64,000 nt of DNA from Alphaproteobacteria bacterium (GTDB taxonomy: Bacteria > Pseudomonadota > Alphaproteobacteria > UBA7985): the NCBI GenBank assembly GCA_965229645.1, contig OZ245893.1:770529-834528 (forward strand), given 5' to 3'. Positions 700 through 52,285 of the stretch are shown in pieces (position 1 is the first letter of the stretch; every line of letters starts with the position of its first letter). A program made the position numbers and the translations under genes. A model generated the notes under the pieces. That model saw only the letters and a list, made by a program, of their open reading frames with translations. It ran no database searches and had not been told where the DNA came from.

Positions 700-910
700 T
701 GCCGCTGGTATTATACCAGCGGCGAATGAAAATGACTCTTATGTTCGCTGGTATAAGGGCCGCGACTGCGGCCCCCGTAGCGGCCCCAAGAATAGCGCGA
801 AAGCGCCTCGGGGTATAAGCGAAGGCCCCGTCGGAGGCGAAACGCGAAGCGTTTCTGCCGTGAGACACAAAACGGACAAAAAAGTGTCAACTTTTTTGGC
901 CGTTGGTATT
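700..910 (-). repeat. MITE-like structured repeat, copy A (full length, reverse orientation)
   Basis: Near-identical to 25964..26160 and 52027..52285. Termini are ATACCAGCGGC / GCCGTTGGTAT. Internal hairpins include GAAACGC-ttc-GCGTTTC and GGGCCGC...GCGGCCC, plus a TTGACA hexamer. Confidence 0.75.
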
Positions 911-1107
911 ACCTCCTTCAAGTGTCCGCTCAGTTGAACGGGTGCCTAGCGAGCTAAATCGTCAGCACCAGAGCGCCTACAGCAGACGCTTACGAAAATA
1001 CAGAATTGCAAATTCAGTACTTATAAAGAACTAGTGACCAAGTTGGAGCGCAGCCTGCGTGGCGCCTGAACACCGTAAAAGGCTGATTGCTAATGACCCT
1101 TGGTTTC

Positions 1108-1239
1108 ATACCAGCCGCGGTAGCTTTTGACTCGTAAAAATGCTTGGAAACCTGGAACTTTTTCGCCAATGACAAACAGCGTATCACGTCAATCACACAA
1201 AGAAATTGGATACGCGTCAATTGATCCCGCCGTTGGTAT
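1108..1239. repeat. Divergent miniature copy of the MITE-like element
   Basis: Begins ATACCAGCCGCGG-tagc-TTTTGAC and ends CCGCCGTTGGTAT, i.e. the same inverted termini and TTGAC box as copies A/B/C, with a different interior. Confidence 0.4.
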
Positions 1240-1328
1240 CAGTCACTCTCAAACAGCGGAAAAGCGTCCCCATCTTGGGACCTTTGCGACGATGCCATCC
1301 CCGCCATCGACAGGATCGCCTAGGTCAA

Positions 1329-1418
1329 TGGCGGAGGGACAGGGATTCGAACCCTGGAAGGGCGTTAACCCTTGCCGGTTTTCAAGACCGGTGCATTCAA
1401 CCGCTCTGCCATCCCTCC
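1329..1418 (-). tRNA. tRNA-Ser (anticodon UGA), class II with long variable arm, CCA encoded
   Basis: Reverse complement reads GGAGGGATGGCAGAGCGGTTGAATGCACCGGTCTTGAAAACCGGCAAGGGTTAACGCCCTTCCAGGGTTCGAATCCCTGTCCCTCCGCCA. Anticodon stem CCGGT/ACCGG, loop CTTGAAA, T-loop GGTTCGAATCC. Confidence 0.85.
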
Positions 1419-1495
1419 GACACGCAAGGCGACTACCCCCAAGCCCCCGACCTGACAAGCGAAAAATCTGCTGGTCTTCGCGAGCGCGATGCGGT

Positions 1496-3922
1496 CTAGC
1501 TGCGCATCCGCGCGCCGTTGTGGTCGAACAAGGCGGTGCGTTGCGGGGTTGCGGCGTAGGTTTTGCCCAGAATTTCGACCGACCAACCCGTTTCCCGATC
1601 CGCCATTTCTTTGGGGACGTAGCCCATAGCGACTGAGACGGATGAAGTATGGGCATAACCACCCGATGTGACCCAACCGACGCACACATCGTTGAGCATG
1701 AGGGGCTCGTCGCCGATCACGTCGGCCTTGTTTGCTGCTACCGTGAAGGTCACCAAGCGATAGGCTGTGCCCCCTGCTGCCTTCTGTTCGACTGCGGCTT
1801 GCTTGCCGATAAAATCCGCGGATTTTTTCACGGCGACAAATCGACCAAGTCCGCATTCGTAGGCATCGTAAATCGGGCGGTACTCGCGCGCCCAGCTGCC
1901 GAAGGATTTTTCAAGCCGCAAGGCGTTGAGCGCCCGCAACCCAAAAGGTTTCAGGCCTAAGTCCTGACCCGCGACCATCAGCGCCTCCCATATGTGCAGT
2001 TGATCGTGCGGTTCCATCCATAACTCGTAGCCCAGATCGCCCGTAAAAGAGACACGGCCCACCAACGCCTGAGACAGGCCAAGGGTCATGGGGCGCAAAT
2101 CCATAAACTTCATCGCGTCCGCGCTGACGTCCGCGCGCGTAATTCGTTGCAGCAGATCGCGCGACTTGGGACCCGCAATCGACAAGCCGACCTTGCGCGG
2201 ACCGTAGGCCGTGATCCGCACATCAAAACCCTCGGCCTGCTGGTCGAACCAACGCCGATGATAGTCTTCGGCGACGCCCGACCCGATCAGCAGGTATTGC
2301 CCCGCAACAGGTTGGCCAAGGGAGAAATCCCCAATCACGCGCCCATCGTGTTTCAGCATGGGAGCGAGCGTCATGCGCCCGACGCCAGGGAGGCGGCAGG
2401 CGAGCAAGCGGTCGAGGTAAGCCGCCGCGTCGGGTCCCTCGATCCCGTACTTGGCGAAACCTGAGGTTTCGATCAGCCCGACCTTGTCGCGTACATTCTG
2501 CGCCTCGGCCGCCACATGGTCAAAGTCGGTCGAGCGATACCAGGAAAATTCATCCTGAACGCCTGCGGGGGCGTACCAGAGCGGCACCTCCAACCCATAG
2601 GAGGCCCCCATTTGCGCACCGAGTGCGCGTTGACGGTCATAGACGGGCGTGGTGCGCAAGGGCCGGGCGGCGGGCAGTTCCTCGTTCGGGAAGCGAATGG
2701 AAAAACGGCGCGAATAGTTTTCCCGCACTTTGGCGTTGGTATAGGCCAAGGTGGCAAAGTCGCCAAAGCGCGACACGTCCATGGCGAACACGTCAAATCC
2801 TGGATCGCCCTCGATCATCCAGTTCGCGAGCGCAAGGCCGACGCCGCCGCCCTGGCTAAAGCCCGCCATGACCCCGCACGCCATCCACAAGCCCCGCTTG
2901 CCCCGTATTGGGCCGACCAAGGGATTGCCGTCGGGGGCAAAGGTGAAGGGACCATTGATAATTTGCTTGATCCCCGTGTTCTGAAACGCGGGAAAGTGGG
3001 TGAAGCCGACCTCGAGTTCTTGCGTAATCCGATCCAAGTCGGGCTCGAGAAGTTCCTTCGAGAAGTCCCAACTGGTTTCGTAAGGCATCCAAGGGCGGCA
3101 GTCTTTCTCATAGGTGCCCATCAACATGCCGCCGCGTTCTTGGCGCAGATACAGCTCGCCATCGAAGTCCACCGCGTGCAGCATTTCTTTGCCTGTCTTG
3201 GCATTGAACTCCGCGACCTCGGGCATGTCTTCGGTAATGAGATACATGTGTTCCATGGCCAGAACTGGCAGCTCCAACCCTACCATGCGCCCAACCTCGC
3301 GCGCCCACAGTCCGCCCGCGTTCACGACGTGTTCGGCAATCAAGTCCCCCACGCTCGTATGAATTTTCCAGGTCTGGTCGGGCAATTGCTCAATAGCCTC
3401 GACCTTGGTCTGCTGATAGATTTCGGCGCCGTTCTTGCGCGCCGATTTGGCGTAGGCGTGCGTTGTGCCATAGGGATCGAGGTGTCCCTCAATTTCGTCG
3501 TAGAGCGCACCGACAAACTGATCGGGGTCGAGCAACGGCATGAGATCGTGGGCCTCTTTGGGCGTGATAATATGCGCCTTAAGGCCCAGGTACTTGCCCT
3601 TGCCCGCGATCGACTTGAGCCAATCGAACCGCGCTTCGGTGGCCGCCAGCATGACCCCACCCGTCATATGCAGGCCGATGTCTTGGCCGCTGGCCTCCTT
3701 GATTTCCTGGTAAAGGTCCACCGTATATTTTTGCAGCTTGGCCACATTGGGGTCACCGTTGATGGTGTGCATGCCGCCCGCCGCATGCCAGGTGGACCCT
3801 GCCGTTAGTTCGGCGCGCTCCAGCAAGACCACATCTGTCCAGCCAAACTTGGTCAGGTGGTATAGTACCGAGGCACCGACAACGCCGCCGCCAATGACCG
3901 CGACTTTCGCATGTGACTTCAT
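1496..3922 (-). CDS. dmgdh: Dimethylglycine/sarcosine dehydrogenase family protein (FAD oxidoreductase N-domain plus GcvT-like folate-binding C-domain)
   Basis: 808 aa. N-terminal VAVIGGGVVGASVLYHL dinucleotide fold. Long C-terminal aminomethyltransferase-like domain typical of DMGDH/SarDH. Confidence 0.75.
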   Translation of the reverse strand: MKSHAKVAVIGGGVVGASVLYHLTKFGWTDVVLLERAELTAGSTWHAAGGMHTINGDPNVAKLQKYTVDLYQEIKEASGQDIGLHMTGGVMLAATEARFDWLKSIAGKGKYLGLKAHIITPKEAHDLMPLLDPDQFVGALYDEIEGHLDPYGTTHAYAKSARKNGAEIYQQTKVEAIEQLPDQTWKIHTSVGDLIAEHVVNAGGLWAREVGRMVGLELPVLAMEHMYLITEDMPEVAEFNAKTGKEMLHAVDFDGELYLRQERGGMLMGTYEKDCRPWMPYETSWDFSKELLEPDLDRITQELEVGFTHFPAFQNTGIKQIINGPFTFAPDGNPLVGPIRGKRGLWMACGVMAGFSQGGGVGLALANWMIEGDPGFDVFAMDVSRFGDFATLAYTNAKVRENYSRRFSIRFPNEELPAARPLRTTPVYDRQRALGAQMGASYGLEVPLWYAPAGVQDEFSWYRSTDFDHVAAEAQNVRDKVGLIETSGFAKYGIEGPDAAAYLDRLLACRLPGVGRMTLAPMLKHDGRVIGDFSLGQPVAGQYLLIGSGVAEDYHRRWFDQQAEGFDVRITAYGPRKVGLSIAGPKSRDLLQRITRADVSADAMKFMDLRPMTLGLSQALVGRVSFTGDLGYELWMEPHDQLHIWEALMVAGQDLGLKPFGLRALNALRLEKSFGSWAREYRPIYDAYECGLGRFVAVKKSADFIGKQAAVEQKAAGGTAYRLVTFTVAANKADVIGDEPLMLNDVCVGWVTSGGYAHTSSVSVAMGYVPKEMADRETGWSVEILGKTYAATPQRTALFDHNGARMRS

Positions 3923-4155
3923 TCTTCTCTTCCTTGAGACTTGAGCTGTTGATGATAGGCCGCCGCCTCGGGCATACCTGCCTCAAGGGCGAAGACGTAG
4001 GCGTGGGTTAAATAGAAGGCCGCGCGCTCAGGGTCGCTGCCATAGTGCGCGGCGGCTTGGGCATAGAGCCTGGCGAGTTCCGGGCCTTGCCCATGCTCGT
4101 GGGCGGCCAGTAACCGCGCCTCGAGGTCCTTCACACCATGCGTTCTGCCACCCAT
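3919..4155 (-). CDS. Small hypothetical protein (78 aa) filling the Rieske-DMGDH gap
   Basis: Its stop overlaps the DMGDH start (ATGA at 3919-3922) and its start overlaps the Rieske gene end. No recognisable domain. Could be a spurious high-GC ORF. Confidence 0.3.
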   Translation of the reverse strand: MGGRTHGVKDLEARLLAAHEHGQGPELARLYAQAAAHYGSDPERAAFYLTHAYVFALEAGMPEAAAYHQQLKSQGREE

Positions 4156-5267: not shown

Positions 5268-5320
5268 GACTTACCGCCTCTCCCCTCAAAAAACAGCCCC
5301 TTTGCGGCATGATTGCAATG

Positions 5321-6340
5321 CTACAGCGACTCCCCCGCGAGTTGCCGCATTCGTTCGAACACGCACAGTCCCTGCACGCTGAGATAGTGGGGGATATCGA
5401 TAAAGACCCAATTTTCCGCCAGCTTGTCGCCCTCGCGGCGATAGACGTCAACAACCCGCATGGGCGCCGCAGTTGGGTTCCCAACCATCCCTAAGAAACC
5501 GCCCGCATTCTTGTTGTTCAGATTTGGCCACCCAAAAAAGGCGCCAAAGGTCCCCTCTGCGATCCGCGCCACATGGCCATTAAATTGCTTGTCATAGAGA
5601 TTAAGGCGAAAGGGGTATTGGTGCTGTTGCTGATAGCGGGGGATGGTTCGTGTCGCGCCGATCCCGCACGGCCCGTACCAGGACATGTGTTCCGCCCAAT
5701 GCTTGCGCAACAAATCGGCTGGAAAAGGCACCGCATCGTCGAGGTTCGCCGCGCCCAAGTGGGTCGTCATCTCGTTGATCAAACGCAAGGTTCGTTGCCC
5801 CTCGGCCACTGGCTGTGCCTGCAACAACCGCCCTGTCCCCCCCTTGGGGCCTGGGTAGGTGAACCAACGTCCCGTCATGGGCGGTAAGGGATAGGCGCCG
5901 CAATCGTGCATCAACCCAATCAAATCAACCCAGAGCGCCGACTCAGCGATCCTGTCCTCTGTTACGCGGTGAAACTCGGCATAGCGCAGAAACGTCAAGC
6001 GACCCGTAGGGGGAATGCCTATGAGTGGCCGATCGTATAGACCTGCAAAATGTCCCATGGAGCAGGTCCAGACTTGCCCCGCTGTGCCCTGTTCACTTTC
6101 ACTTAGGCCCGCAAAGAATAGATCTTCGCGCCGCTCAAAGCCCCCAAAAGACTGCCGCAAAGGCCGCCAGAACGTGGCAACCGCTGCGGACGCGCAAGGG
6201 CATTCATAAAATGGCCGAACACCGCGCCAGCTATAGTGCGTGGACGCAAAGGCATGATGCACATCTTCCAAGTCTGTCGAGGTATCGAGACTTGTGGTGA
6301 AACGTTGAACCAGGTCCTTCGCGCTTTGAAGGTCCGTCAT
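5321..6340 (-). CDS. Tandem SnoaL-like/NTF2-like domain protein (ester-cyclase-like), function unknown
   Basis: 339 aa, two NTF2-like halves. Start ATG overlaps the stop of the upstream low-GC gene (ATGA at 6337-6340). Confidence 0.45.
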   Translation of the reverse strand: MTDLQSAKDLVQRFTTSLDTSTDLEDVHHAFASTHYSWRGVRPFYECPCASAAVATFWRPLRQSFGGFERREDLFFAGLSESEQGTAGQVWTCSMGHFAGLYDRPLIGIPPTGRLTFLRYAEFHRVTEDRIAESALWVDLIGLMHDCGAYPLPPMTGRWFTYPGPKGGTGRLLQAQPVAEGQRTLRLINEMTTHLGAANLDDAVPFPADLLRKHWAEHMSWYGPCGIGATRTIPRYQQQHQYPFRLNLYDKQFNGHVARIAEGTFGAFFGWPNLNNKNAGGFLGMVGNPTAAPMRVVDVYRREGDKLAENWVFIDIPHYLSVQGLCVFERMRQLAGESL

Positions 6341-7902
6341 GGCGAGCGCCCCTGGGACGCCTCGGCAAGAGACACAGTGCTCTGAACGGGTCTCGACTGC
6401 AAATAGTTGCGATACTCTTGTTGCGCAATTTCGATAAACTTGGGCTCAATTCGCAACAAATCGTTCTTAATAAAGGGCATGCCATGCAGCTTGGTATGGA
6501 CAAAGGTCGCCTCCCTCGTCGTGACGGTAAGATTCAAGAACTTCTTGAGCCATCGTCGAATAATCTTTGAATGCTCGTGAACCAATCTTGGGTTGTCCAT
6601 GATGAGTTTTCTTATACTCCAATTCAACTCAAACCAGGGAGTAGATCGAGGAATCATCAGAAGAGATTTTACAATCTCAAAAACCTCATCCGCTTTAGCT
6701 TCATCCAACTTCAACTTTTCTCTATTGAAAAGAGACCTATACGAGAGCCCCGCATTTCTTATCGATTTTGATAGTTCCTTTTCTCCAAGATATATGACTT
6801 CTGATTTTCTGGAATAGTAACCTAATTCCCTCCAGTAGTCTCGGAAGAACTTACTCCCAATTACCTTATCCTTACACAAAACGAGAAATGCACCCAGGTG
6901 AAAATTATCTTGGGTTGGAATATGGGTATTCTCCACAGCACCTGCAAAATCGCAGTCTAGGCTATTCAGTCGATCATACAAGTCGCTTAAAGCGCCTTCG
7001 TAAAGAAAGGTCTGCGAATCATTCGTAAGTAAGATTTTTGCTGGCTTTGCCTTCTGATCCAAAACCATCTCCATTGCGTCCTTATAGGCACCAAAATCAA
7101 TACCCAAATTGGGGCGCACTGCATAGTGAAAACTCTTGCTGCACAGATCGCATGGCAACGAGGGTTTCCGAAAAAGGCTATAGACAAAAGCAGAAAATCC
7201 AACATTGTGGATCAAAACAAACTGAACGTTGCGTTCAGATAAGCGTTTACACTCGGCCAAGAACACGGACTTATTTCCAATATCTCCGTGCAGGACAGCA
7301 ACCGCGATCATACTATCGGGTCCGATCTCATACCCCTTAGGACTAGAAACAACTGTTGACCCAAACAAGCCGAGTGCATATTTTATGATGCTGAATAGCA
7401 TCCCATAAATGAAGATCGACAGCGCGCGCAGATAGTTGGTTGTAAACAACTTTTTAAGGGCGCGCAATACCTCTCTAACAGGCCTATTTCTTTCCGAGAC
7501 ATAGGTGAGCTGTTCTATGATCCATCTCCATCCTGCCAGGGCCTTGGGTTTTTTGTCAAAGTTCCCAAATTCCAATGTCTGTTCTACATATGGTCTGAAC
7601 CGTCGATTTCCTGCCAACCGACTCGGATCATCCCAAAGGGAATTCTCAAAATCACTCTCTTGCATTCCCTTCGCAGTTCGTCCTTTACCGATTCCATCGA
7701 CCTCACCAAATCGCCCGATCTCAGAGCCTTGCATGTTTTCATTTAACCTTTTCTCATCTGCGAGCTCTTCGGAGGCGCCCTTAAGTTCTTCAAAAGTCGA
7801 TACGAACACATCGGAACTGCTCTTTATGGCGTTACGAGTTTGATAAAGACTTCGGTTTACTTTCAACCTCAGTTTATATTTCGCATATAGACCCAAAATC
7901 AT
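6337..7902 (-). CDS. Low-GC hypothetical protein, weak resemblance to RgpF-type (rhamnan synthesis F) polysaccharide biosynthesis proteins
   Basis: 521 aa. AT-rich codon usage in strong contrast to neighbouring genes. No DXD motif or other catalytic motif identified. Confidence 0.35.
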   Translation of the reverse strand: MILGLYAKYKLRLKVNRSLYQTRNAIKSSSDVFVSTFEELKGASEELADEKRLNENMQGSEIGRFGEVDGIGKGRTAKGMQESDFENSLWDDPSRLAGNRRFRPYVEQTLEFGNFDKKPKALAGWRWIIEQLTYVSERNRPVREVLRALKKLFTTNYLRALSIFIYGMLFSIIKYALGLFGSTVVSSPKGYEIGPDSMIAVAVLHGDIGNKSVFLAECKRLSERNVQFVLIHNVGFSAFVYSLFRKPSLPCDLCSKSFHYAVRPNLGIDFGAYKDAMEMVLDQKAKPAKILLTNDSQTFLYEGALSDLYDRLNSLDCDFAGAVENTHIPTQDNFHLGAFLVLCKDKVIGSKFFRDYWRELGYYSRKSEVIYLGEKELSKSIRNAGLSYRSLFNREKLKLDEAKADEVFEIVKSLLMIPRSTPWFELNWSIRKLIMDNPRLVHEHSKIIRRWLKKFLNLTVTTREATFVHTKLHGMPFIKNDLLRIEPKFIEIAQQEYRNYLQSRPVQSTVSLAEASQGRSP

Positions 7903-7984
7903 TTAATTATACCAACGCAAAGATACACTGATTCATTGACCAACCTGCGTCCAAGGACCAAACCTGAGGAGTGATGCCCCCACC

Positions 7985-8100
7985 AGTGTTCATCCTGCGC
8001 ACTGCGAAGCGAAGTCGCAGGATCCAGCACTCATCGGTTTCATGAAGTACAGACGGCATGAACCTTATACCAACGACTAAAAAAGTTGACACTTTTGTGG
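7985..8100. repeat. Junction with fragments of both repeat families (195-bp palindromic family fragment at ~7993-8040; MITE 5' end at 8067-8100)
   Basis: GCGAAGCGAAGTCGCAGGATCCAGCAC matches the inter-core segment of the tandem arrays at 44757-44810. ATACCAACGACTAAAAAAGTTGACACTTTTGTGGCCC matches the MITE 5' end. Confidence 0.5.
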
Positions 8101-8284
8101 CCCTTGGTGTCATGTGTTTACAAGTCCGAAGCACGTCAAAGCAGACCTTATGCGTTCCTCTCATTCTTTTGGTGTTCGTCAACCAAGTTCTATCAACACA
8201 AAGTAAAGAAACCAACGCGATCAAGAGTCAAATCGCATGAAGAGGACAGGAATTTTATTGGGGCGCAAGCAACGTATCGACACG

Positions 8285-9067
8285 CTAAGAACGATAAACC
8301 TGACTCGCGCCCGCGTTACTGGCACGTTTTCTGATGAGATCAAGGACCGCCGCATCCCGCTCTTGACCTTTTGCTGGCGCGAATAGAGCCTTGCCTCGGT
8401 TTTCCTCACCATCGGGAGGAACCGTCAAGTAATAGATCGCGATAGACTTGCGGCATTGACCCTCGGGCCCGTTCACGGGCCCAACAAGACCATGCCAACT
8501 ATTTTGGGTCGTATCAAACAAAACAGCTCGGTTGAACTTTGGAACAATGACTTCAATGAGGTCTTCGGGAGTCTTCTTTTTTGCTTTGGCTGACCAGAAC
8601 CCCAACTCACCTCCCCACGTATCTTGCCATTGGGCGTTCATATAGACAATTAGGTTCAGCTTTCGCTGCAAGCCCAACTTGGGATGGATGTTGTAATCAA
8701 GATGCTGGTTCAGCTTGCCCCCGCGCGCATGAATATGCCATCCACCGCCGTTCAATCCAGGGTCCGGAAATAAGGGAGAAATTCCCGTGAACGTCTCAAG
8801 ACAGGTAAGGAACCCAGGTGAGTTTAAGTAAGCGAATAGGGCATAGGTGAGCGGCGTAAACTCATTGTAATCGTTGCATGTCTTTTTAATTTCAATCGCA
8901 TTCCGATACTCGTGCCAAACTGGAGACTGAAATTCTGGAAATTCCTCACTTAAGGAACTGGCGACTTTAGGGTCGAAGAAATCGTCGAGAACAATGTGAT
9001 CAAAAGGCTTGCGATGCTGAAACTGATCAGGGGTAAAGGCGCGGATACCGTACTTGAGTTCCATCAC
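8285..9067 (-). CDS. 2-oxoglutarate/Fe(II)-dependent oxygenase superfamily protein (low GC)
   Basis: HxD...H facial triad (QHLDYNIH ... SWHGLV) and the basic RKS motif near the C-terminus. AT-rich. Confidence 0.6.
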   Translation of the reverse strand: MMELKYGIRAFTPDQFQHRKPFDHIVLDDFFDPKVASSLSEEFPEFQSPVWHEYRNAIEIKKTCNDYNEFTPLTYALFAYLNSPGFLTCLETFTGISPLFPDPGLNGGGWHIHARGGKLNQHLDYNIHPKLGLQRKLNLIVYMNAQWQDTWGGELGFWSAKAKKKTPEDLIEVIVPKFNRAVLFDTTQNSWHGLVGPVNGPEGQCRKSIAIYYLTVPPDGEENRGKALFAPAKGQERDAAVLDLIRKRASNAGASQVYRS

Positions 9068-9161
9068 AGTGCTCCAATTAAACCTGCGTGTCGTTCCCGT
9101 GTGTTCTTTGGATCAGCAAGGCGTGCGAGGGGTGGTGTTCCCCTTCGCACGACCAAGTTGT

Positions 9162-24765: not shown

Positions 24766-25950
24766 TCAAGCCTCGGGCGCGTCATATAGCTCCGCCAAAA
24801 TCTCCGCCTCGTGCTCGCCGAACAGGGGTGGCGGGCAGTCGTAGGTGACGGGGGTTTTGGAGAATTTGAGCGGGTTCCCGATCAACGGGATCTGGCCGCT
24901 GGCGACGTGGGGGCTGGGGACTTGGGGGTGCATGTTGCGGGCGCTGACTTGGTCGCTGGCGAAAACTTGCGCCAGATTGTTGACGGGGCCTGCGGGGACG
25001 CCGATGGCTTCTAGGCTTTCGACCACGGCGTCGGTGGTCAGGCCGCCGACGGTTTTGGCGATGGCGGGGATCAAGTGATCGCGGTGCTTTAGGCGTGCGG
25101 GGTTGGTGGCGAATTGAGGGTCGCTGGCCCAGTCCTCCTGCCCCAGCCAAGTCGCGAAACGGGCGAATTGGCGATCATTGCCAACGGCGATGACCACGTG
25201 CCCGTCGGCGGTGTCAAACACCTCGTAGGGCACGATGCTCGGGTGGGCATTGCCGCGCCGGGGCGGGACTTGGCCCGTGACCAGATGGGCGCTGCCTTGG
25301 TTGATGAGCCAGGCGATTTGGGTATCGACCAGGGCCAGGTCCAGATGCTGCCCCTGCCCTGTCTGGGTGCGATGGTGCAGGGCCGCCAGGATGCCGCTGG
25401 CCGCGTAGAGGCCGCACACCACATCGGCGACCGCGACCCCGACTTTCATGGGTTGGCCCTCAGGGGTTCCTGTCAAGGACATGAGCCCGCCGTAGGCTTG
25501 CGCCATCAGGTCATAACCCGGTTTGGCGGCGTTGGGGCCCGTTTGACCAAAGCCCGTGATGGAACAGTATAGGAGCGCGGGGTTGAGCGCGCTCAGGCTG
25601 TCGTAGTCCAACCCGTAAGCAGCGAGGCCCCCGACCTTGAAATTTTCGACCAAGATGTCGCTGTGCTTTGCCAGTTGGCGCACGATCCGTTGGCCTTCCT
25701 CAGTTGTCAAGTCGAGCGGCAACGAGCGTTTGCCGCGATTGGCGCTGACGAAGTAGGCGCTTAGGTCCTGACCGCCATCGACCTGTTCCAGGAACGGCGG
25801 CCCCCAGGTGCGCGTGTCGTCGCCACGCGTTTTCGGGTTTTCGACCTTGATCACGTCGGCGCCCAGGTCGGCGAGCAGTTGCGTGCAGCTAGGCCCTGCC
25901 AAAATGCGCGAAAGGTCGAGGACGCGCAGCCCCGTCAAAGGTCCTGCCAT
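24766..25950 (-). CDS. CoA-transferase family III protein (CaiB/BaiF-like)
   Basis: N-terminal LTGLRVLDLSRILAGPSCTQLLADLGADVIKVE signature. Confidence 0.75.
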   Translation of the reverse strand: MAGPLTGLRVLDLSRILAGPSCTQLLADLGADVIKVENPKTRGDDTRTWGPPFLEQVDGGQDLSAYFVSANRGKRSLPLDLTTEEGQRIVRQLAKHSDILVENFKVGGLAAYGLDYDSLSALNPALLYCSITGFGQTGPNAAKPGYDLMAQAYGGLMSLTGTPEGQPMKVGVAVADVVCGLYAASGILAALHHRTQTGQGQHLDLALVDTQIAWLINQGSAHLVTGQVPPRRGNAHPSIVPYEVFDTADGHVVIAVGNDRQFARFATWLGQEDWASDPQFATNPARLKHRDHLIPAIAKTVGGLTTDAVVESLEAIGVPAGPVNNLAQVFASDQVSARNMHPQVPSPHVASGQIPLIGNPLKFSKTPVTYDCPPPLFGEHEAEILAELYDAPEA

Positions 25951-25963: not shown

Positions 25964-26160
25964 ATACCAACGGCCAAAAAAGTTGACACTTTTTTGTCCG
26001 TTTTGTGTCTCACGGCAGAAACGCTTCGCGTTTCGCCTCCGACGGGGCCTTCGCTTATACCCCGAGGCGCTTTCGCGCTATTCTCGGGGCCGCTACGGGG
26101 GCCGCAGTCGCGGCCCTTATGCCAGCGACTAAAAGAGTCATTCTCATTCGCCGCTGGTAT
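25964..26160 (+). repeat. MITE-like structured repeat, copy B
   Basis: ATACCAACGGCC...GCCGCTGGTAT with the same internal hairpins as copy A. Begins 14 bp upstream of the CoA-transferase start codon. Confidence 0.75.
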
Positions 26161-39175: not shown

Positions 39176-39256
39176 TCTGATATGCGCGGCTGCGTTGATT
39201 TTGACGACGGCGGCTGCTGAAGGTCCAAGCAAGGTTGGGTGAACATTTCATGCTGA

Positions 39257-39469
39257 ATGCTGCGACTGTTCACAGGATGGCGTTTGGCTAGAAGACTGAA
39301 GTCACCCGAAGATACGAGACTCCTTAGATTTCCGCCCTCCGCGCGAGAACTCAACTCTATGGAAAACGTCTGGCCGAATCCACAAGCCAACAACCGCTCG
39401 GCAACCGTTTTCGAACGTTGCGATGACATTCTCCAAAGCGTGCACGTCATGGAGCTTCTCGGCAAATGA
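39257..39469 (+). pseudogene. Remnant of an IS630/Tc1-family transposase C-terminus
   Basis: Translation FPPSARELNSMENVWPNPQANNRSATVFERCDDIL matches the conserved LPPYSP(E/D)LNPIENVW...N...F C-terminal block of IS630 transposases. No catalytic upstream part is present. Confidence 0.5.
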
Positions 39470-39606
39470 CCTGGAGCGCATAGAATCAATAGCCGCGCGT
39501 AGATGAGCAACGGTCGTCTGATTTTTGCACTGGAGTTGCGCACAAGGTGGGTCGCGCATCGACTTCTCGTGCAAGGGAGCGAACACCTACAAAATGGAGT
39601 TCCCCA

Positions 39607-40506
39607 ATGTCAGAATTCACTGAACAAATTACAACCTATCTCACCCATTGTGAAAGATCGCGCAGTCTAAGCCCCCACTCCCTTAGGGCCTATGCGCAAG
39701 ACTTGTTTGATTTTCTCTCCTTCAGAGCTGTGCACGACAAAGAAGATGCAGTAAAACCAGAAACCCTTATCGATTACGTATATCACTTAAGACATGATCG
39801 TAATCTTAAACCAGCTACGGTGCGCAGAAGGCTGACTTGTGTTCGCGCGATGTTGCTTTGGACTTATCAAGACAACTCAGCGCTTTGTTCCAGAATTCGA
39901 GAACAAGACCTTGAACTGCGAGTTCCAAAAACCCTACCCAAGCCCATAGAGCGGCAAGACATACGGCATATTCTGCAAATTGGCGAAACAGTTTTATCCA
40001 AGTCAACCTGGAAACAAACTGCTCTGCTCATACGTCTCATTGTCGCAACAGGACTCAGGATCAGCGAAATTCTCAACATCAAACTCAAAGATGTTAGCAC
40101 CGACGGCAGAACAATCCGCGTGATGGGTAAAGGGAGCCGTGAGCGCACGGTTTACGTGGTCAATATCGATGTTCTCCAAGAGTTTACTGAAATGCTCTGC
40201 GGTAGGCAGAACCACAATCCAAATGATCACGTGTTTCAGAATGCCTGGGGTCGGCCTCTAAGTGCAAGCGCATTTCGAAAACGCCTAAAGGACTTGACAT
40301 CCAGGCCAAATGTGCCGGCGCATCTATCTCCACATAAGCTTCGACACTCCGCGGCAACCCTGCTGATTGAGGAAGGGGTGGATATTCGCTTGATTCAAAG
40401 GTTGCTTGGTCATGCCAGTATCGCGACTACGGAACTCTATACCAAGGTTACCGACACATCTCTCCGCGCAGCGCTTGAGTGTGCGGACACAATTTCAACG
40501 ATTTAG
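39607..40506 (+). CDS. Tyrosine-type site-specific recombinase/integrase (XerC/D-like fold)
   Basis: Start MSEFTEQ. Catalytic residues in GLRISEIL, HKLRHSAAT and LLGHASIATTELYTKV. Intermediate GC. Confidence 0.8.
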   Translation: MSEFTEQITTYLTHCERSRSLSPHSLRAYAQDLFDFLSFRAVHDKEDAVKPETLIDYVYHLRHDRNLKPATVRRRLTCVRAMLLWTYQDNSALCSRIREQDLELRVPKTLPKPIERQDIRHILQIGETVLSKSTWKQTALLIRLIVATGLRISEILNIKLKDVSTDGRTIRVMGKGSRERTVYVVNIDVLQEFTEMLCGRQNHNPNDHVFQNAWGRPLSASAFRKRLKDLTSRPNVPAHLSPHKLRHSAATLLIEEGVDIRLIQRLLGHASIATTELYTKVTDTSLRAALECADTISTI

Positions 40507-43242: not shown

Positions 43243-44010
43243 CTGGTGTTCCGTGATGGATGCTGCGACTGCGCGCAGCATGACATCGGAAGGGGTGTCG
43301 GGGTTTCGGAACACCGTCATCCAGCGCGTTGCGAAGCGATGTCGCAGGGTCCAGCGCCCGCCGTTTTCAGCCTGGGTGGAACTTGGTGACACAGAGCAGA
43401 ACAGGCATCGCGCGGTCGGCACCGTCTGCTCTTGTGGCCTGTGTTCCGTGATGGATGCTGCGACTGCGCGCAGCATGACATCGGAAGGGGTGTCGGGGTT
43501 TCCGAACACCGTCGTCCAGCGCTTCGCGACGCGACTTCGCGGATCCAGCGCCTGCCGTTTTCAGCCTGGGCGGAACTTGGTGACATAAAGCAGAACGGGC
43601 AAGGCGCGGTCGGCACAGTCTGCTCTTGTGGTCGGTGTTCCGTGATCGATGCTGCGACTGCGCGCAGCATGACATCGGAAGGGGTGTCGGGGTTTCCGAA
43701 CACCGTCGTCCAGCGCGTCGCGACGCGATGTCGCGGATCCGGCGCCTGCCGTTTTCAGCCTGGGTTTAACTTGGTGACATAGAGCGGAGCAGGCAAGGCG
43801 CGGTCGGCACCGTCTGCTCTTGTGGCCTGTGTTCCGTGATGGATGCTGCGACTGCGCGCAGCATGACCTCGGAAGGGGTGTCGGGTTTCGGAACACCGTT
43901 ATCCAGCGCGTCGCGACGCGACGTCGCAGGATCCAACGCCTGCCGTTTTCAGCTTGGACAGAACGTGGTGACATATAGCCGAACGGGCAAGGCGCGGTCG
44001 GCACCATCCG
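43243..44010. repeat. Tandem array 1 of a ~192-198-bp high-GC nested-palindrome repeat (4 units)
   Basis: Units start at 43243, 43441, 43633 and 43829. Core is GTGTTCCG-TGATGG-ATGCTGCG-actgcg-CGCAGCAT-...-CGGAACAC, followed by a conserved segment with the CGTCGCGACG / GCGACGTCGC palindromes. Confidence 0.85.
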
Positions 44011-44254: not shown

Positions 44255-44296
44255 GGATGCGCGCTTGCGAATTCTTCGCCAAACTCGCCGAGGCCT

Positions 44297-44756: not shown

Positions 44757-45690
44757 TCATCCAGCGCGGAGCGAAGCGAAGTCGCAGGATCCATCACCCG
44801 CTGTTTCCCCTGAAACGGAACGCGGCCACAAGGAGAGAAGCACGCAACCCAAGAGTCGGTCCCGTCCGCTTTCGCGACAGACGTTCAGTGATGGATGCTG
44901 CGACTGCGCGCAGCATGACATCGGAAGGGGGTGTTGGGGTTTCGGAACACCGTAATCCAGCGCTTCGCGACGCGACGTCGCAGGATCCAGCGCCTGCCGT
45001 TTTGAGCCTGGGCGGAACGTGGTGACACAGAGCAGAACAGGCATCGCGCGGTCGGCACCGTCTGCTCTTGTGGTCGGTGTTCCGTGATGGATGCTGCGAC
45101 TGCGCGCAGCATGACGTCGGAAGGGGTGTCGGGGTTTTGGAACACCGTCATTCAGCGCGTCGCGACGCGACGTTGCAGGGTCCATGGCCTGCTGTTTCGT
45201 CCTAGGCTGAACGTGGTGACATAGAGCGGAACGGGCAAGGAGTGGTCGGTACCGTTTGCTGTTGTGGTCGGTGTTCCGTGATGGATGCTGCGACTGCGCG
45301 CAGCATGACACCAGGAGGGGCGTCGGGGTTTCGGAACACCGTAATCCAGCGCTTCGCGACGCGACGTCGCAGGATCCAGCGCCTGCTGTTTTGAGCCTGG
45401 GCGGAACGTGGTGACAAAGAGCGGAACAGGCAAGGCGCGGTCGGTACCGTCCGTTCTTGTGGCCTGTGTTCCGTGATGGATGCTGCGACTGCGCGCAGCA
45501 TGACATCGGAAGGGGGTGTTGGGACTCTGAACCAGCGTCATCCGGCGCGGAGCGAAGCGAAGTCGCAGGGTCCATCACCTGCTGTTTTCAGCCTGGGCGG
45601 AACTTGGTGACATAAAGCGGAACGGGCAAGGCGCGGTCGGCACTGTCCGCGCTTGTGGCCAGTGGTCCGTGATGGATGCTGCGATTGTTT
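44757..45690. repeat. Tandem array 2 of the ~195-bp nested-palindrome repeat (~5 units, last truncated)
   Basis: Same core GTGATGGATGCTGCGACTGCGCGCAGCATGAC recurring at ~44888, 45084, 45279, 45473 and 45668. Confidence 0.85.
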
Positions 45691-45797
45691 TGTGATGCGG
45701 ACGTTCCTTGCGCCTTTGGGGATTGGAGCCCGCTTGCAAACCGCAGCCGTGGCCCTACACCAGATCCAACAAGAATTTTTCGCAATAGGGTTTGTCC

Positions 45798-46166
45798 CTA
45801 TCGAGCCATCCAGCCTCTATCGGCGGCCAGAGCCCGCAACCGCTTTGCCCTTATTGTGACTTGATTATTGGTTAGGCCCGAAAAATCAATAAGAAAGTGG
45901 GCAGGATTTTCAGGGACAGGATCCGCCTCAAATGGCAAATCAAGACGACGATATTCCTCCTCACTAAGACTCTGAACGCCGATACTATCGAAACCACGCG
46001 CGAGAAAATTAGCCAAACTGCCTTGAGCAGAAACCAAGGCTTCATGATCTACCGACAAGCATGATTGGTTTTTGAGCATAGGTTTGAACGCAAGGCTCAT
46101 AACCCTTCCATCTTTTTCATGATCGGCGCAAATATTCCTCATAAGACACTTCTTCCCAGCATTCAT
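45798..46166 (-). CDS. Hypothetical protein (122 aa), lower GC, second gene of a two-gene cassette
   Basis: ATGA overlap with the upstream ORF at 46163-46166. No recognisable motif. Confidence 0.4.
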   Translation of the reverse strand: MNAGKKCLMRNICADHEKDGRVMSLAFKPMLKNQSCLSVDHEALVSAQGSLANFLARGFDSIGVQSLSEEEYRRLDLPFEADPVPENPAHFLIDFSGLTNNQVTIRAKRLRALAADRGWMAR

Positions 46167-46654: not shown

Positions 46655-46702
46655 TGAACTTGTATGGCATATGGGAAGCAAGCGGTCAATTCGGGGGACA
46701 AA

Positions 46703-46758
46703 AGACGTACCTCCACGCCCTTCTCCAGCAAACTTGTGCCGACGCAGGGCGCATCTGA
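46703..46758 (+). pseudogene. Fragment duplicating the last ~17 codons of the LysR gene at 50929..50981
   Basis: ACGTACCTCCACGCCCTTCTCCAGCAAACTTGTGCCGA(C/T)GCA(G/A)GG is shared; it encodes ..TYLHALLQQTCADA.. in both places. Confidence 0.6.
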
Positions 46759-46825
46759 TTGGATGGAGCCATTGCCGCGAGCCGCGGACCACGCTCAAGC
46801 GCCCCGCGTTCAGCTTGACATCTTG

Positions 46826-47345
46826 GGGGGTGTCGGGACTCTAAAACACCGTCATCCAGCGCGTCGCGACGCGACGTCGCGGGATTCAGCGTCTGCCGTT
46901 TTCAGCCTGGGTTGAACTTGGTGACGTAGAGCGGAGCAGGCAAGGCACGGTCGGCGCCGTCCGTTCTTGTGGCCTGTGTTCCGTGATGGATGCTGCGACT
47001 GCGCGCAGCATGACATCGGAAGGAACGTCGGGTTTCGGAACACCGTCGTCCAGCGCGTCGCGACGCGACGTCGCAGGGTCCAGCGCCTGCCGTTTTCAGC
47101 CTGGGCGGAACGTGCTGACATAGAGCCGAACGGGCAAGGCATGGTCGGCGCCGTCCGTTCTTGTGGCCTGTGTTCCGTGATGGATGCTGCGACTGCGCGC
47201 AGCATGACGTCGGGAGGGGTGTCGGGGTTTCGGAACACCGTCGTCTGGCGCGTTGCGACGCGACGTCGCAGGGTCCATCGGCTGCTGTTTCGTCCTGGGC
47301 GGAACGTGGTGACATCGAGCGGAACGGGCAACGCACGCTCAGCAC
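46826..47345. repeat. Tandem array 3 of the ~195-bp nested-palindrome repeat (~2.5 units)
   Basis: Cores at ~46981 and 47175. Array ends in the same terminal segment as array 1 and runs into segmental-duplication copy 2. Confidence 0.85.
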
Positions 47346-47471
47346 CATCCGTTCGTAGGGTCAGCGTGCTGGGGTGGATGTGGCGGGGCCAAGCAGCGCT
47401 TTCTTATTTGACTTCGACCCTTGGATGGAACAGCAGAGCGATGGGACTATCCAACGCCGAAGGAGCAGTCG

Positions 47472-47621
47472 ATGAACCAACGCGATCATGCCGTCTGCGT
47501 TCGCCACTACTTTGAGTATTTGACCGCCTCCAACTACGCTACGATCCTCGACTTGTTCGATCCCGATGGGGAGGTCGATTCTCCCTATCTGGGCAGGATG
47601 CGCGCGCTTACCTTGCCATGA
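47472..47621 (+). CDS. Small SnoaL/NTF2-like fragment protein (49 aa), translationally coupled to the FAD monooxygenase
   Basis: MNQRDHAVCVRHYFEYLTASNYATILDLFDPDGEVDSPYLGRMRALTLP. Stop overlaps the monooxygenase ATG (ATGA at 47618-47621). A degenerate copy is at 44108-44175. Confidence 0.35.
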   Translation: MNQRDHAVCVRHYFEYLTASNYATILDLFDPDGEVDSPYLGRMRALTLP

Positions 47622-48865: not shown

Positions 48866-48973
48866 GTGTCCGTAACCTACGCGATCAGGTCTCAACTTAG
48901 GCCGTATCTGGTTGATCTGGCAGCATGGGGCACTCGGGCGCGTTGGTGGCGGAGGACCACTTGTACGCTTTCC

Positions 48974-49963
48974 TCAGCGTGGCTGGTCCGGTTCGTTGGG
49001 ATTGCGCGTGATGAGTGTCTCAATTTGCTCCATGGTTTCTGCTGGCAAGGGACCCAAGCTCAAAGCATCGGTGATTTCGTTCATTTGTTCTGCTGTTCGC
49101 GCGCCTGGGACTGGAACATGATCTTCGCGCTGCCCCCAAATCCATGCCAGCGCGCCCTGGACAGGCGTTCGGCCCCCTTGGGTCAAAAGATCGCGGACAG
49201 CCGCGAGGGTCTCCAGAAACGCTGGATTGGCCCGCCCATCGCGGTAGTATTCCATCCAATCTTCACGCGACGCGCGAATGTCGTTGGCTGGCAAGGTCGT
49301 TGCGGCGTTGTACTTTCCCGAGAGCAAGCCCATGGCGAGCGGGGATCGGATCAATGACAAGAGCCCCTGATCGCGCGCCACGTTCTGCATGCGCGGGGCG
49401 TCGAAGAATAGGTTCATGGCGTATTCCACCGCGACAAAATTGGGTTGCGAGGCCACCGCCGATGCGCGCTCAGAATAGTCCGTGCTCCACCCATAGGCGC
49501 GCAACTTACCCGCCGCCCGCAAGCCGTCCATCGCATGGAAGATGGTTTGCGCCTCGGCCACGGGCATGTCGTTGATATGGAGCAACACAAGATCAAGACA
49601 CTCGCGGTTCAAGCGACGCAAGCAACCCTCCACGGCTGGCACCACGTCCTCGGGCTTGAAGGGTTGAAACGAAATTTGCTTGCTCTGTTCGTCGATCCCG
49701 ATGCCAATTTTGGTTATGATCAGCGCGTCGGGCCGCCCTTTGAGCGCCTGGGCCAGCAGACGCTCTGAATGGCCCGCCCCGTAAGCTGCCGCCGTATCGT
49801 ATACCCTGATACCCCCGTCCCAGGCTGCATGGATTGTGCGGATTGAGGCCCCGTCGTCCGCCTTAGCGTAGCCCAAGGACTGAGTGCCGTGGTACATGGT
49901 CCCCCCTATGGGCCAGCACCCCATCCCCAAAGCGGGGATTTGTGTGTCAAAAATTCGGATCAT
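48974..49963 (-). CDS. Aldo/keto reductase
   Basis: Start MIRIFDTQIPALGMGCWPIGG. AKR catalytic-tetrad context. Coordinates of the start are +/- 1 because of an indexing ambiguity. Confidence 0.7.
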   Translation of the reverse strand: MIRIFDTQIPALGMGCWPIGGTMYHGTQSLGYAKADDGASIRTIHAAWDGGIRVYDTAAAYGAGHSERLLAQALKGRPDALIITKIGIGIDEQSKQISFQPFKPEDVVPAVEGCLRRLNRECLDLVLLHINDMPVAEAQTIFHAMDGLRAAGKLRAYGWSTDYSERASAVASQPNFVAVEYAMNLFFDAPRMQNVARDQGLLSLIRSPLAMGLLSGKYNAATTLPANDIRASREDWMEYYRDGRANPAFLETLAAVRDLLTQGGRTPVQGALAWIWGQREDHVPVPGARTAEQMNEITDALSLGPLPAETMEQIETLITRNPNEPDQPR

Positions 49964-50144
49964 TGCGGATCTCCCATCGCAGGCCGCAAGTTGAAGGGAA
50001 CACCCAACGTCGAACAGACCCGCCTTAAGTGTGACAACGAAAGTAAAATTAGGAGACAACTGGTCCCCCATGTGCCTTCGCGGAACCTGCTTGAAACAGC
50101 CTTTGGCTCTTTTCATCAACAAAAGAAAATGAAATTATCATTTC

Positions 50145-50981
50145 ATGAATGAACGTTGTTTGGATTGGGACAACCTAAAGTTGTTCCTGGCTGTCGCACG
50201 CGCTGGCGGTTTGGGACCCGCAGCGGCGCGAACGGGCAAGAGCCCACCAACGCTCGGGCGGCGCATGGTTGAGCTGGAACGCGACCTGGGAAGAGACTTA
50301 TTTGTCCGCAAACCTCGCGGTTACAGCCTGACCCAGGAGGGTGAGGGTTTGCTCGTGAAAGCTGAATCGATGGAAGCCCTGGTTCAACCCCTGCTCGCAA
50401 CCAGTCCAGCGGAGGCGCCGCCGCTTGTGAAAATTGCCGCTGGGACTTGGGTAACGCAAGTCTTGCTGCAGGCGGTAGATCAGCTCCTGGCCACTGCCCC
50501 CGTGCGGCTGCGGTTTATTGCCGAAGAAAGCCTGACGGACATCGCCCGACGCGAAGCTGTGATTGGTGTACGCAACCGTGCGCCTGTCCAAGTTGGTTTG
50601 GCGGGTCGCAAAATTGGCGGTGTCCAATTTGCCGTCTACGCCCGCGATCCCAGCGTCACCCCGTGGGCGCGGGTTTTAAACGAGACGCCATCCGCGCTTT
50701 GGGTGAGGCGTATGTCCCAAGGCGCGCCCGCCATCGAGGTCAGCGCGCCGCACCATGCCCTCACCCTGGCAAAGGCTGGCCTCGCACGCGCGGTTCTGCC
50801 AACCTTCATAGGAAACCAGCAAGCAGGCCTTCGACCCGTTTCCGATCCCATCCACGCCTTAAACCACGATCAATGGTTGGTAGCGCACCATGAAGACCGC
50901 TTTCTTCCCGAAATCCGGAAGTTGATGACGTACCTCCACGCCCTTCTCCAGCAAACTTGTGCCGATGCAAGGTACGTGTGA
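50145..50981 (+). CDS. LysR-family transcriptional regulator
   Basis: N-terminal wHTH LKLFLAVARAGGLGPAAARTGKSPPTLGRRMVELERDLGRDLF. Confidence 0.8.
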   Translation: MNERCLDWDNLKLFLAVARAGGLGPAAARTGKSPPTLGRRMVELERDLGRDLFVRKPRGYSLTQEGEGLLVKAESMEALVQPLLATSPAEAPPLVKIAAGTWVTQVLLQAVDQLLATAPVRLRFIAEESLTDIARREAVIGVRNRAPVQVGLAGRKIGGVQFAVYARDPSVTPWARVLNETPSALWVRRMSQGAPAIEVSAPHHALTLAKAGLARAVLPTFIGNQQAGLRPVSDPIHALNHDQWLVAHHEDRFLPEIRKLMTYLHALLQQTCADARYV

Positions 50982-51061
50982 AACCAAGGGTCATAAAATT
51001 TGACTTTTTTATGGCCCTTGTACCAGCGAACATACGAGTCATTCTGGGTCGCCGCTGGTAT
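50981..51061. repeat. Miniature (~80 bp) copy of the MITE-like element exactly filling the gap between two convergent LysR genes
   Basis: AAACCAAGGGTCATAAAATTTGACTTTTTT...TACCAGCGAACATACGAGTCATTCTGGGTCGCCGCTGGTAT retains both termini of the full element but lacks its centre. Confidence 0.6.
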
Positions 51062-52005
51062 CAGTCGGCTTCATCGCGGCCTGCGCCTACGAAATGCCGC
51101 TTTCCGTCCGACGAGGCGAAATAGTCGCGGCAGACGGTTTCAAACAGCGTGACCGCAGGGCTCACGAAACTGTCGGCGCGCCGCATTGTTCCGAAGATCG
51201 GGGCGGGCACGGCGTCGGAGAGGGGGATACTGTGAACAGCGCGTCCTGTGTAGGCAACATCGACGGCAGGTTTCAGATTCAACAAGGCATAGCCCAAGCC
51301 ATAGGACACGAAACTGCGCAGCGTTTGAAACGTTCCTGCGCGGTACACCACATGCGGCGCGATATTGGCAACCCGAAACAGCATGTCGAAGTAAGTGCGC
51401 GATTCTGGCAAGTCCAACAAGATCATGGGGAACGGTGCAAGCTCGGCCAACGTCACGGACTTGCGCGCGGCGAACGGATGCGCGGCGTCGATCAAGGCAT
51501 AGGGTCGCGCAAGCCCGAAGCCCTTGAAATCCGTCCCATCTGGTTTCCCCAAGTCGTAGGTCAGCGACACGTCCACCGCGCCGCTTAGCACTAGATCGGC
51601 GACATAGATCAGGTCGCCCTCGATGACTTTAATTTTCAGTTTCGGGTGTCGTTCGGACATTTTCTGCACCGCGTAGGGCAAAGCCAGCGGCGCGAGAGGG
51701 GCGAAGCAACCAATTGCGAACTCCCCCGTCAGTTCGCTTTGCGCGCTGGCCATATGGTCCTCAAGTTCGCGCGCCTGATCGAGCAGTGCGCGCACCTTGT
51801 TGACCAACCTTTGCCCGTCGGAGGTCAGCAAGATTCCCTTGCTGGGGCGTCGCACGAACAACTGGACATTGAATTGGTCCTCGAACGCGTCGATGGCCGC
51901 CGCAATCGAGGATTTGGAGATCCGTTGGCTGGTCGCAGCAGCAGCGATGGACCCGTGGCTTGCTGCGGCCTCGATATAGATCAGTTGCCTTAGATTTAAT
52001 CGCAT
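51061..52005 (-). CDS. LysR-family transcriptional regulator
   Basis: Start MRLNLRQLIYIEAAASHGSIAAAATSQRISKSSIAAAIDAFEDQFNVQLF (wHTH). Confidence 0.8.
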   Translation of the reverse strand: MRLNLRQLIYIEAAASHGSIAAAATSQRISKSSIAAAIDAFEDQFNVQLFVRRPSKGILLTSDGQRLVNKVRALLDQARELEDHMASAQSELTGEFAIGCFAPLAPLALPYAVQKMSERHPKLKIKVIEGDLIYVADLVLSGAVDVSLTYDLGKPDGTDFKGFGLARPYALIDAAHPFAARKSVTLAELAPFPMILLDLPESRTYFDMLFRVANIAPHVVYRAGTFQTLRSFVSYGLGYALLNLKPAVDVAYTGRAVHSIPLSDAVPAPIFGTMRRADSFVSPAVTLFETVCRDYFASSDGKRHFVGAGRDEAD

Positions 52006-52026
52006 GGGCGCGCGCCTTTCAGAAAC

Positions 52027-52285
52027 AGACGCCTTTATGCCAACGACCAAAAAAGTTGACACTTTTTTGGCCGTTTTGTGTCTCGCGGCAGAAACGCTTC
52101 GCGTTTCGGCTTTTCTGGGTTGCGGTCTCTACTCGCTCGCTATGCTTGCTCAGCCCGACCTCAGGACGGGACCTTCGTTTTACCTCGAGGCGCTTTCCTT
52201 GTTTGTCTCGGGGCCGCTGCGGGGGCCGCAGTCGCGGCCCTTAATACCAGCTATCATTAGAGTCATTCTGGGTCGCCGCTGGTAT
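52027..52285 (+). repeat. MITE-like structured repeat, copy C (longest, with a ~60-bp internal insertion)
   Basis: ATGCCAACGACCAAAAAAGTTGACAC...GCCGCTGGTAT. Starts 22 bp upstream of the LysR start codon. Confidence 0.75.

Follow-up and report, generated by a model that had tools for sequence, protein, structure and literature searches.

Short repeats dispersed through a 64,000-nt stretch of an alphaproteobacterial genome (lineage UBA7985, contig OZ245893.1, positions 770,529 to 834,528; hereafter the window) form, in all likelihood, a lineage-specific, high-copy and non-autonomous family of miniature inverted-repeat transposable elements (MITEs). They would be moved in trans by OrfAB, the transposase (HTH and DDE_3 domains) of an insertion sequence (IS) of the IS630 family, a copy of which lies at the left edge of the window. 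The main argument that this IS supplies the transposase is the end-specific match between its ends and those of the MITEs. An earlier note on this DNA had described the repeats as a MITE-like mobile element, a description borne out by termini shared with the IS630-family IS, by TNA duplications and by an empty site for one of the copies. The repeats would be selfish DNA of an ordinary sort, with three mildly unusual traits: they are flanked by TNA, are built of hairpin modules and carry a fixed CcrM site at one end.

In the window, the family comprises seven pieces: three full copies, two small ones, a solo hairpin and a fragment. Its terminal 11-mer GCCGCTGGTAT, with at most one mismatch, occurs 12 times against 1.0 expected, and none of 100 shuffles reached 12. 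With element tips defined as TACC...GGTA, the full copies lie at 714-908 (copy A, minus strand, 195 nt, 97% complementary to copy B over 200 nt), 25965-26159 (copy B, plus strand, 195 nt) and 52038-52284 (copy C, plus strand, 247 nt). All three had been recognized before, with bounds that are corrected here. Bases 700-713, previously counted in copy A, consist of the tip of the IS, which ends at 710, and a shared TTA triplet (711-713), read from the sequence, between the IS tip and the right (R) tip of copy A. The flanks of copy A are identical (TTA at 711-713 and 909-911). Junctions of the form GGTA-TWA-TACC, with one triplet shared, also join adjacent elements in the metagenome-assembled genome (MAG) CBDDHH01, hereafter the sister genome, whose orthologous DNA is 83-89% identical to the window. 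Copy B sits between the stop of a DAO-oxidoreductase gene and the start of a CoA-transferase gene, both on the minus strand. Copy C, flanked by TTA on both sides, lies in the divergent control region of lysR and an amidase gene, and equals copy B plus a 54-nt internal module X that is also present in sister-genome copies.

Two miniature or deleted copies with both termini had also been reported. One of them, mini2 (50982-51060, plus strand, 79 nt), is real and consists of a left (L) hairpin followed directly by an R hairpin. It lies between two convergent LysR genes whose stop codons it bridges exactly, as the earlier note had stated: the flanking triplets TGA (50979-50981) and TCA (51061-51063) are those stop codons. 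The other (1109-1238, minus strand, 130 nt) is a genuine member but belongs to a diverged subfamily and is no deletion derivative. It ends in TACCAACGGCGGG...GAGTC...GCGGCTGGTA, is flanked by TCA at 1106-1108 and 1239-1241, and has only its two ends in common with the main family. A second copy of this type occurs in the sister genome (locus L015, 7778-7861). The left end of the 1109-1238 copy resembles the left inverted repeat (IRL) of a different, related IS (L045). A truncated L-hairpin fragment, AACCAAGGGTCAT (1093-1105, minus strand), abuts this copy; the left junction of mini2 has the same 16-mer, TGAAACCAAGGGTCAT. At 8068-8109 (plus strand) there is a complete solo L hairpin of 42 nt with flanks TTA and TCA, and not a broken 5' fragment at 8067-8100 as had been thought. 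The sister genome has similar solo hairpins (L023, 5928-5965; L013, 1269-1304). BLAST matched a fragment without termini (45686-45764, plus strand) to two internal modules of long copies, Y and module 4.

The partner IS occupies 1-710 on the minus strand, is cut by the window edge and has its IRL tip, TACCAGCGGCAAGAATGAGCGACTC on the minus strand, ending at 710. An intact IS on contig L037 (1403-2574, 1,172 bp) is 98% identical to it, window 1-710 being compared with the first 708 nt. The intact element carries orfA, an A8 slippery run and orfB with a DDE_3 domain, and reads TTA-TACCAGCGGCAAGAATGGGCGACTC ... CCGTTGGTA-TTA. Pfam assigned HTH_23/28/29/32/33 and DDE_3 to the partner transposase. 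In the window, an orfA remnant at 266-616 (minus strand; Pfam HTH_28/29/32/23) encodes 116 aa vs 170 aa in the L037 IS, and the window IS is probably defective because orfA is shortened. Homologs of the window product are OrfA proteins of ~170 aa, one of them, on L037, being 96% identical. The earlier note had pointed to this IS630 as a candidate partner, and its termini prove to be those of the repeats, end by end. Over ~30 nt the MITE R end agrees with the IRL of the IS, which has G at position 6 and GACTC at 21-25. The MITE L hairpin, and most closely its GGTCAT variant, agrees with the right inverted repeat (IRR), which has A at position 6 and TGACC at 20-24. These matches span about 25-33 nt, and each is specific to its end. 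When all end types were aligned, only two blocks were conserved, the tip TACCA(A/G)CGG and GAC at positions 21-23, with C3, C4, A5, G21 and A22 invariant over IS and MITE ends. This IS terminus is also present in the sister genome (L008, 6502-6604).

The earlier note had suggested a check for target-site duplications, and these were found as direct TNA triplets. The outer triplets are identical at both ends in 20 of 32 full copies. Among these copies, TTA on the left went with TTA on the right in 15 cases and with the inverted TAA in none, so the flank is a direct repeat and no extension of the terminal inverted repeat (TIR). Across 48 two-ended copies, 24 have identical TNA triplets vs 14.8 by permutation (p ~5e-4). 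The triplets are mostly TTA, with some TCA/TCA and TGA/TGA pairs among them (L019 and window 1109-1238). The target logo is palindromic, with G at -6 and C at -4 before TNA and G at +4 and C at +6 after it, i.e. GnC-TNA-GnC. Three related IS copies are likewise flanked by TNA (TTA/TTA, TAA/TAA and TAA/TAA). The elements would insert by cut-and-paste of the DDE type, the target being cut in a staggered fashion at TNA. Duplication of 3 bp is the simplest reading of these flanks; duplication of 1-2 bp with an element-borne T or A fits as well, since T and A are invariant and the two cases look alike in sequence. In 7 of the 48 copies a flanking triplet is the stop codon of an open reading frame (ORF) of at least 100 codons, vs 5% of all TNA triplets, an excess that is suggestive and not significant. 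A TNA target can fall on TAA or TGA of either strand, in which case duplication regenerates the stop.

Comparison with the sister genome provided an empty site. There, the spacer between the DAO-oxidoreductase and CoA-transferase genes is 51 bp long, with a single TTA and no copy B (L039, 6351-6401). The empty site reads CAACAGGTC-TTA-GGGATTGGCGGATG, and the filled site in the window, in a spacer of 249 nt, reads CAACACCTC-ATA-(195-nt copy B)-TTA-GGGATTGACGGATG. Copy B is an insertion of 198 bp into a single TTA that postdates the split of the two lineages. A more distant relative from Tara Oceans (L041, LysR 79% identical) has no copy C in its orthologous spacer and is too diverged to define the duplication. 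Exact-protein look-ups for LysR, the amidase and neighbouring genes returned no close ortholog carrying the copy C or mini2 site. Other insertion sites also differ between the window genome and the sister genome.

A wider search for the family, also proposed in the earlier note, recovered many dispersed copies. The right-end pattern was scanned against a one-genome-per-species collection and gave at least 36 loci, all from the sister genome among the matches listed. About 100 element regions lie within 288 kb of these sister-genome loci, which were chosen by the right-end pattern. Elements make up 1.8% of DNA that was not chosen for the repeat (the window and two orthologous loci), at a density of one per ~8 kb. 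Within the 189-nt class of the sister genome, the pairwise identity of copies has a median of 96% and reaches 100%. The internal module had no match in 241 million JGI metagenome records. In the same metagenomes the right-end pattern gave one match only, a different MITE of ~137 nt with the same end type (L043, 8150-8250, and L044, 2200-2340). It reads TTA-TACCACCGGCC...GAGTCATTTTTTATGGCCGCTGGTA-TTA, with GAGTC at the same position and TTA flanks. Given the same ends, GANTC position and TTA flanks, the IS/MITE end type extends past the lineage studied. Copy B searched with blastn against 72,556 plasmids (PLSDB) gave no match.

Copies range overall from 38 to 290 nt and have no coding capacity; the transposase needs ~1.05 kb. 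The size classes of full copies are 186-189, 195-196, 236-238, 244 and 290 nt; they differ by optional internal blocks of 7, 48 and 54 nt between the termini TACCA(A/G)CGG ... CCG(C/T)TGGTA. The left end of every copy is a hairpin, TACCAACGG-stem-TGAC-stem, and the right end is a hairpin, TACCAGCG...GAGTC...CGCTGGTA, preceded by TTA or TA. L and R hairpins were also found alone (38-46 nt) and back to back as minis of ~80 nt. The terminal hairpins are probably fold-back duplications of IS ends, an origin from which solo hairpins (38-42 nt), L+R minis and long mosaic copies (187-290 nt) would come to coexist. The L-hairpin stem comes in three forms (GGCGAAAAAAGT, CTCCGCTAAAAAT and GGTCATAAAAAG) that have the TGAC loop in common, and the R hairpin has an analogous two (CAGCG/CAGTTC). 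Eight of 15 pairs in the L-hairpin stem have changed at both positions, and the share of paired cells is 90%, vs 41-55% in slid controls. The predicted fold of copy B has an energy of -88 to -95 kcal/mol (z -5.4 to -6.0).

A separate observation concerns the 48-nt module Y (..GCGCGGGCGTTCCCTGCGCCC..GGGCTTGGAGCCC..), which is locally amplified in the sister genome as short tandem runs (L017, 73-322 and 1473-2182; L022, 5988-6288). Inside some copies, these runs produce composite elements of up to ~700 nt.

Several points weigh against a MITE family mobilized by this IS. Transposition itself is unobserved. The window IS looks defective, the only intact copy is on L037, a low-coverage contig of the same sample series, and no intact partner IS was found in the ~0.4 Mb seen from the two genomes. 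Classical IS630/Tc1 elements duplicate TA. The flanks TCA/TCA and TGA/TGA hold no TA and depart from this rule, so the family does not have a strict TA target or duplication of the IS630/Tc1 type. MITE copies are 92-95% alike between the two genomes vs 83-89% for orthologous genes, so recent spread or exchange is needed. Finally, the L-hairpin stem has strong compensatory variation, which a DDE mechanism does not require. Its likeliest source is repeated fold-back duplication of IS ends in few independent events. The same changes hint at an added constraint on a hairpin of single-stranded DNA (ssDNA), DNA or RNA.

The R end carries a further conserved feature, a GANTC site. In 32 of 32 full copies the R hairpin loop holds GAGTC at a distance of exactly 25 nt from the R tip, and GANTC is present in all six IRL-type ends of the window, including that of the IS (686, 734, 1129, 26135, 51036 and 52260). 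Of three related IS copies, two have it in the IRL and L046 does not; it also occurs in the unrelated JGI MITE, and never in IRR-type ends. Overall, GANTC is under-represented, with 835 sites observed vs 1,136 expected in 376 kb (the window and loci L001-L040) and 120 vs 185 in the window, which is consistent with a CcrM-bearing alphaproteobacterium. Inside the elements its density is 2.4-fold higher. Dam sites couple IS10 and IS50 to replication. We tentatively raise the possibility, which we hold to be rather unlikely, that GANTC at positions 21-25 is more than part of a binding block. In the same way, it may tie the expression of the transposase, or the use of the ends, to the hemimethylated state that follows replication. 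The CIR repeats of Alphaproteobacteria, long without an explanation, may also have originated as IS630-type MITEs inserting at TNA.

The GANTC site also suggests a different explanation, in which the repeats would be CIR-type, CcrM-associated repeats, kept for a methylation site exposed in a hairpin loop and serving methylation-dependent regulation or chromosome biology. The fixed GAGTC in the full copies and window ends and the raised GANTC density speak for it, as does the agreement in architecture with the published CIR description (PMC2229807). By this account, CIR1-4 of Caulobacter, Brucella and other Alphaproteobacteria (Chen and Shapiro 2003, via PMC2229807) are confined to intergenic DNA and are of unknown mobility. 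A linker connects their two independent inverted-repeat arms, one of which has GANTC in its loop, and their termini are of the TA type. Unlike the family here, with its TIR, TNA duplication, empty site and partner IS, CIR are described there as ~110 bp long, in ~20 copies, with no TIR and no known target-site duplication or transposase. Moreover, GANTC is inherited from the IRL of the IS, so it may matter for the transposon and not for the host, and one related IS (L046) does without it; nor was a CcrM gene seen in the DNA at hand, where no search for one was made. We regard retention as CIR-type repeats as improbable. The likeness to CIR, drawn from a published description, may serve as a lead and carries no claim of membership.

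Recruitment by the host is less probable still, and we consider it quite unlikely that the repeats are an sRNA gene family, a portable promoter with TTGACA as -35 box, a portable terminator or an mRNA-stabilizing structure under selection. The earlier note had suggested a promoter, terminator or sRNA function. In support, the predicted structure is very stable (z ~-5.4 to -6.0), copies lie tight against gene starts and stops, and in copy C the L hairpin followed by GTTTTRT is terminator-like. The earlier note had placed full copies 14 and 22 bp upstream of two start codons; the L tip of copy B is indeed 14 nt from the CoA-transferase ATG at 25950, and that of copy C is 32 nt from the LysR ATG at 52005. 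It had also seen TTGACA in all copies. Copies A, B and C and the solo hairpin carry the exact hexamer; the corresponding bases are TTTGACT in mini2 and ATTGACG in the 1109-1238 copy, leaving only GAC invariant. Since no -10 partner turned up, we do not take TTGACA for a -35 box. It is explained by (T)GAC at positions 20-23 from each tip, the inner conserved block of the transposon end, and its GAC core is as conserved in IS ends as in the repeats. Consensus scans in and around copies B, mini2 and C found no sigma-70-like -35/-10 pair, and scans of these three for terminator-like hairpins gave hits only inside C and none in B or mini2. Rfam reported only two tRNAs in the window at gathering score; at E<=10 there were three sub-threshold matches to miRNA precursors, which we took as chance. 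G-U pairs are not enriched in the stems (9 G-T vs 33 A-C on the L-to-R strand), though a few inherited positions dominate this count and leave it uninformative as to an RNA strand. Insertion sites are not conserved between the sister genomes.

Placement relative to genes points the same way. A total of 100 out of 104 copies are intergenic, and the four exceptions overlap weak short ORFs. Co-directional spacers hold 20 sense and 18 antisense copies, i.e. there is no orientation bias. Convergent spacers hold 26 copies and divergent spacers 16; the convergent class is somewhat over-represented (26/80 copies vs 43/261 spacers), which would favour host recruitment. Intergenic placement without orientation bias does not support a designed promoter, terminator or sRNA role. 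Incidental effects of copies on neighbouring genes are possible, and individual copies must matter locally. Copy B lengthens a 51-bp intercistronic spacer to 249 bp of strongly folding sequence inside the DAO-oxidoreductase/CoA-transferase gene pair, and copy C separates lysR from a conserved control region common to lysR and the amidase gene. We infer that such effects on neighbours are by-products of insertion and not a designed function.

Repetitive extragenic palindromes (REP) and bacterial interspersed mosaic elements (BIME) in E. coli are palindromic mosaics that have no target-site duplication, are linked to the REP-associated tyrosine transposase (RAYT) and are a specific target of IS621-type IS110 elements with a CT core. 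It is very unlikely that the family consists of REP/BIME-like units, moved as ssDNA hairpins by a RAYT (an IS200/IS605-type Y1 transposase) or kept by the host, with a secondary likeness to IS ends: although the basic hairpin units occur solo, paired and in mosaics with other modules, their stems co-vary strongly and an IS110-family IS with a CT core targets the MITE at one fixed site as IS621 does REP, the direct TNA flanking repeats and single-TNA empty site are foreign to REP/RAYT, both MITE ends correspond, each in an end-specific way, to those of a DDE-type IS, and no Y1 transposase turned up in the ORFs of the loci inspected, where no systematic search for one was made.

The IS110-family element is of interest in its own right. 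It is 1,190-1,191 bp long, encodes DEDD_Tnp_IS110 and Transposase_20 domains, and lies inside the MITE at one fixed position and always in the same orientation, as ..GTTTCGTGT-CT-(IS)-CT-CACGGCAGAAACGC... The MITE sequence at the insertion point is GTTTCGTGT-CT-CACGGCAG. Copies were found at L001 (2253-3443) and in L006, L016 and L022, with one-sided junctions in L002, L004, L022 and L028 and a variant in L005. In 288 kb of the sister genome there are four complete copies and five one-sided junctions; the window has none. This MITE-specific targeting resembles that of IS621 in REP, and the ~240-nt non-coding leader of the IS110 element could encode a guide RNA.

Among known systems, the family regarded here as IS630-mobilized MITEs can be compared with RUP, proposed to be mobilized by IS630-Spn1 (PMC2229807). 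In both cases small, non-coding intergenic repeats have TIRs matching an IS630-family IS of the same genome, and trans-mobilization was inferred from ends and duplications (PMC2229807). RUP is a uniform 107 bp with a TA duplication, whereas the present family is built of hairpin modules of 38-290 nt with TNA flanks (TTA, TAA, TCA, TGA), the A8 slippery run of its partner IS joins two ORFs, and each MITE end matches a different IS end. Correia/NEMIS elements of Neisseria are also high-copy intergenic MITEs, with long and short forms differing by a ~50-bp internal block, positions near genes and strongly folded transcripts (PMC2229807). They differ in their 24-26-bp TIRs, TA duplication, integration host factor (IHF) site, documented promoters and RNase III processing, and in having no known partner IS; those functional motifs were not found here. 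ISHsp2 is a two-ORF IS630 member with a TTAA duplication (PMC3606827). Like ISHsp2 and other two-ORF IS630 elements, the partner IS has orfA (HTH) and orfB (DDE) at a poly-A slippery run, and its duplication departs from plain TA (PMC3606827). The ISHsp2 duplication is 4 bp, vs TNA here, and ISHsp2 transposed in a trap plasmid, whereas the present IS is a computational find.

MITE pieces were also seen where the two genomes are rearranged. Window 5340-9120 (3.8 kb, with genes for an RgpF-like glycosyltransferase and a 2OG-Fe(II) oxygenase and one more gene) is replaced in the sister genome by 418 bp (L040, 3165-3583) that hold a 181-nt MITE, and MITE pieces lie at the breakpoint in both genomes. 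A hotspot lies downstream of a shared tRNA gene (window 1332-1418, minus strand; window 880-1500 vs L040 7420-8100). It holds two MITE pieces, a full copy and the IS in the window, and other MITE copies followed by restriction-modification-type genes in the sister genome.

Other repeats and elements accompany the family. An 81-nt segment (CCTCCTTCAAGTGTCCGCTCAGTTGA..GACGC) at window 912-992 and L037 1322-1402 is 88% identical in otherwise unrelated contexts; it ends at TTA in both, the TTA being occupied by the IS in L037 and free in the window, and it may be another small dispersed element. Window 39273-39482 (plus strand) has 70% identity to IS positions 905-1116 and, judged by this match, is a putative second, older IS630-type relic, a remnant of a related DDE region. 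Three arrays of a 194-196-nt tandem unit (43245-44005, 44883-45684 and 46845-47354; 2.6-4.1 copies each, 85-90% matches) lie downstream of a tyrosine recombinase gene (39547-40506). The unit holds conserved palindromes such as ATGCTGCGACTGCGCGCAGCAT, and single related units occur at 39246-39283 and 59950-60025. Its hairpin motif ..CTGCGCACTGCGAAGCGAAGTCGCAGGATCC.. is also present at 7988-8039, 28 nt from the solo MITE hairpin.

For annotation, these findings mean that ~2% of the genome belongs to one MITE family, which places structured spacers in operons and control regions, marks rearrangement breakpoints and confuses sRNA, promoter and terminator predictions. For transposon biology, they offer an unusually complete in silico case, comprising a partner IS, end-specific TIR homology, a target logo, an empty site and a series from the 38-nt hairpin to the 290-nt mosaic. 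The case concerns an IS630-family element with a TNA, and not a TA, flanking repeat. If the GANTC link were true, it would tie cell-cycle DNA methylation to transposition in Alphaproteobacteria and would explain the CIR repeats.

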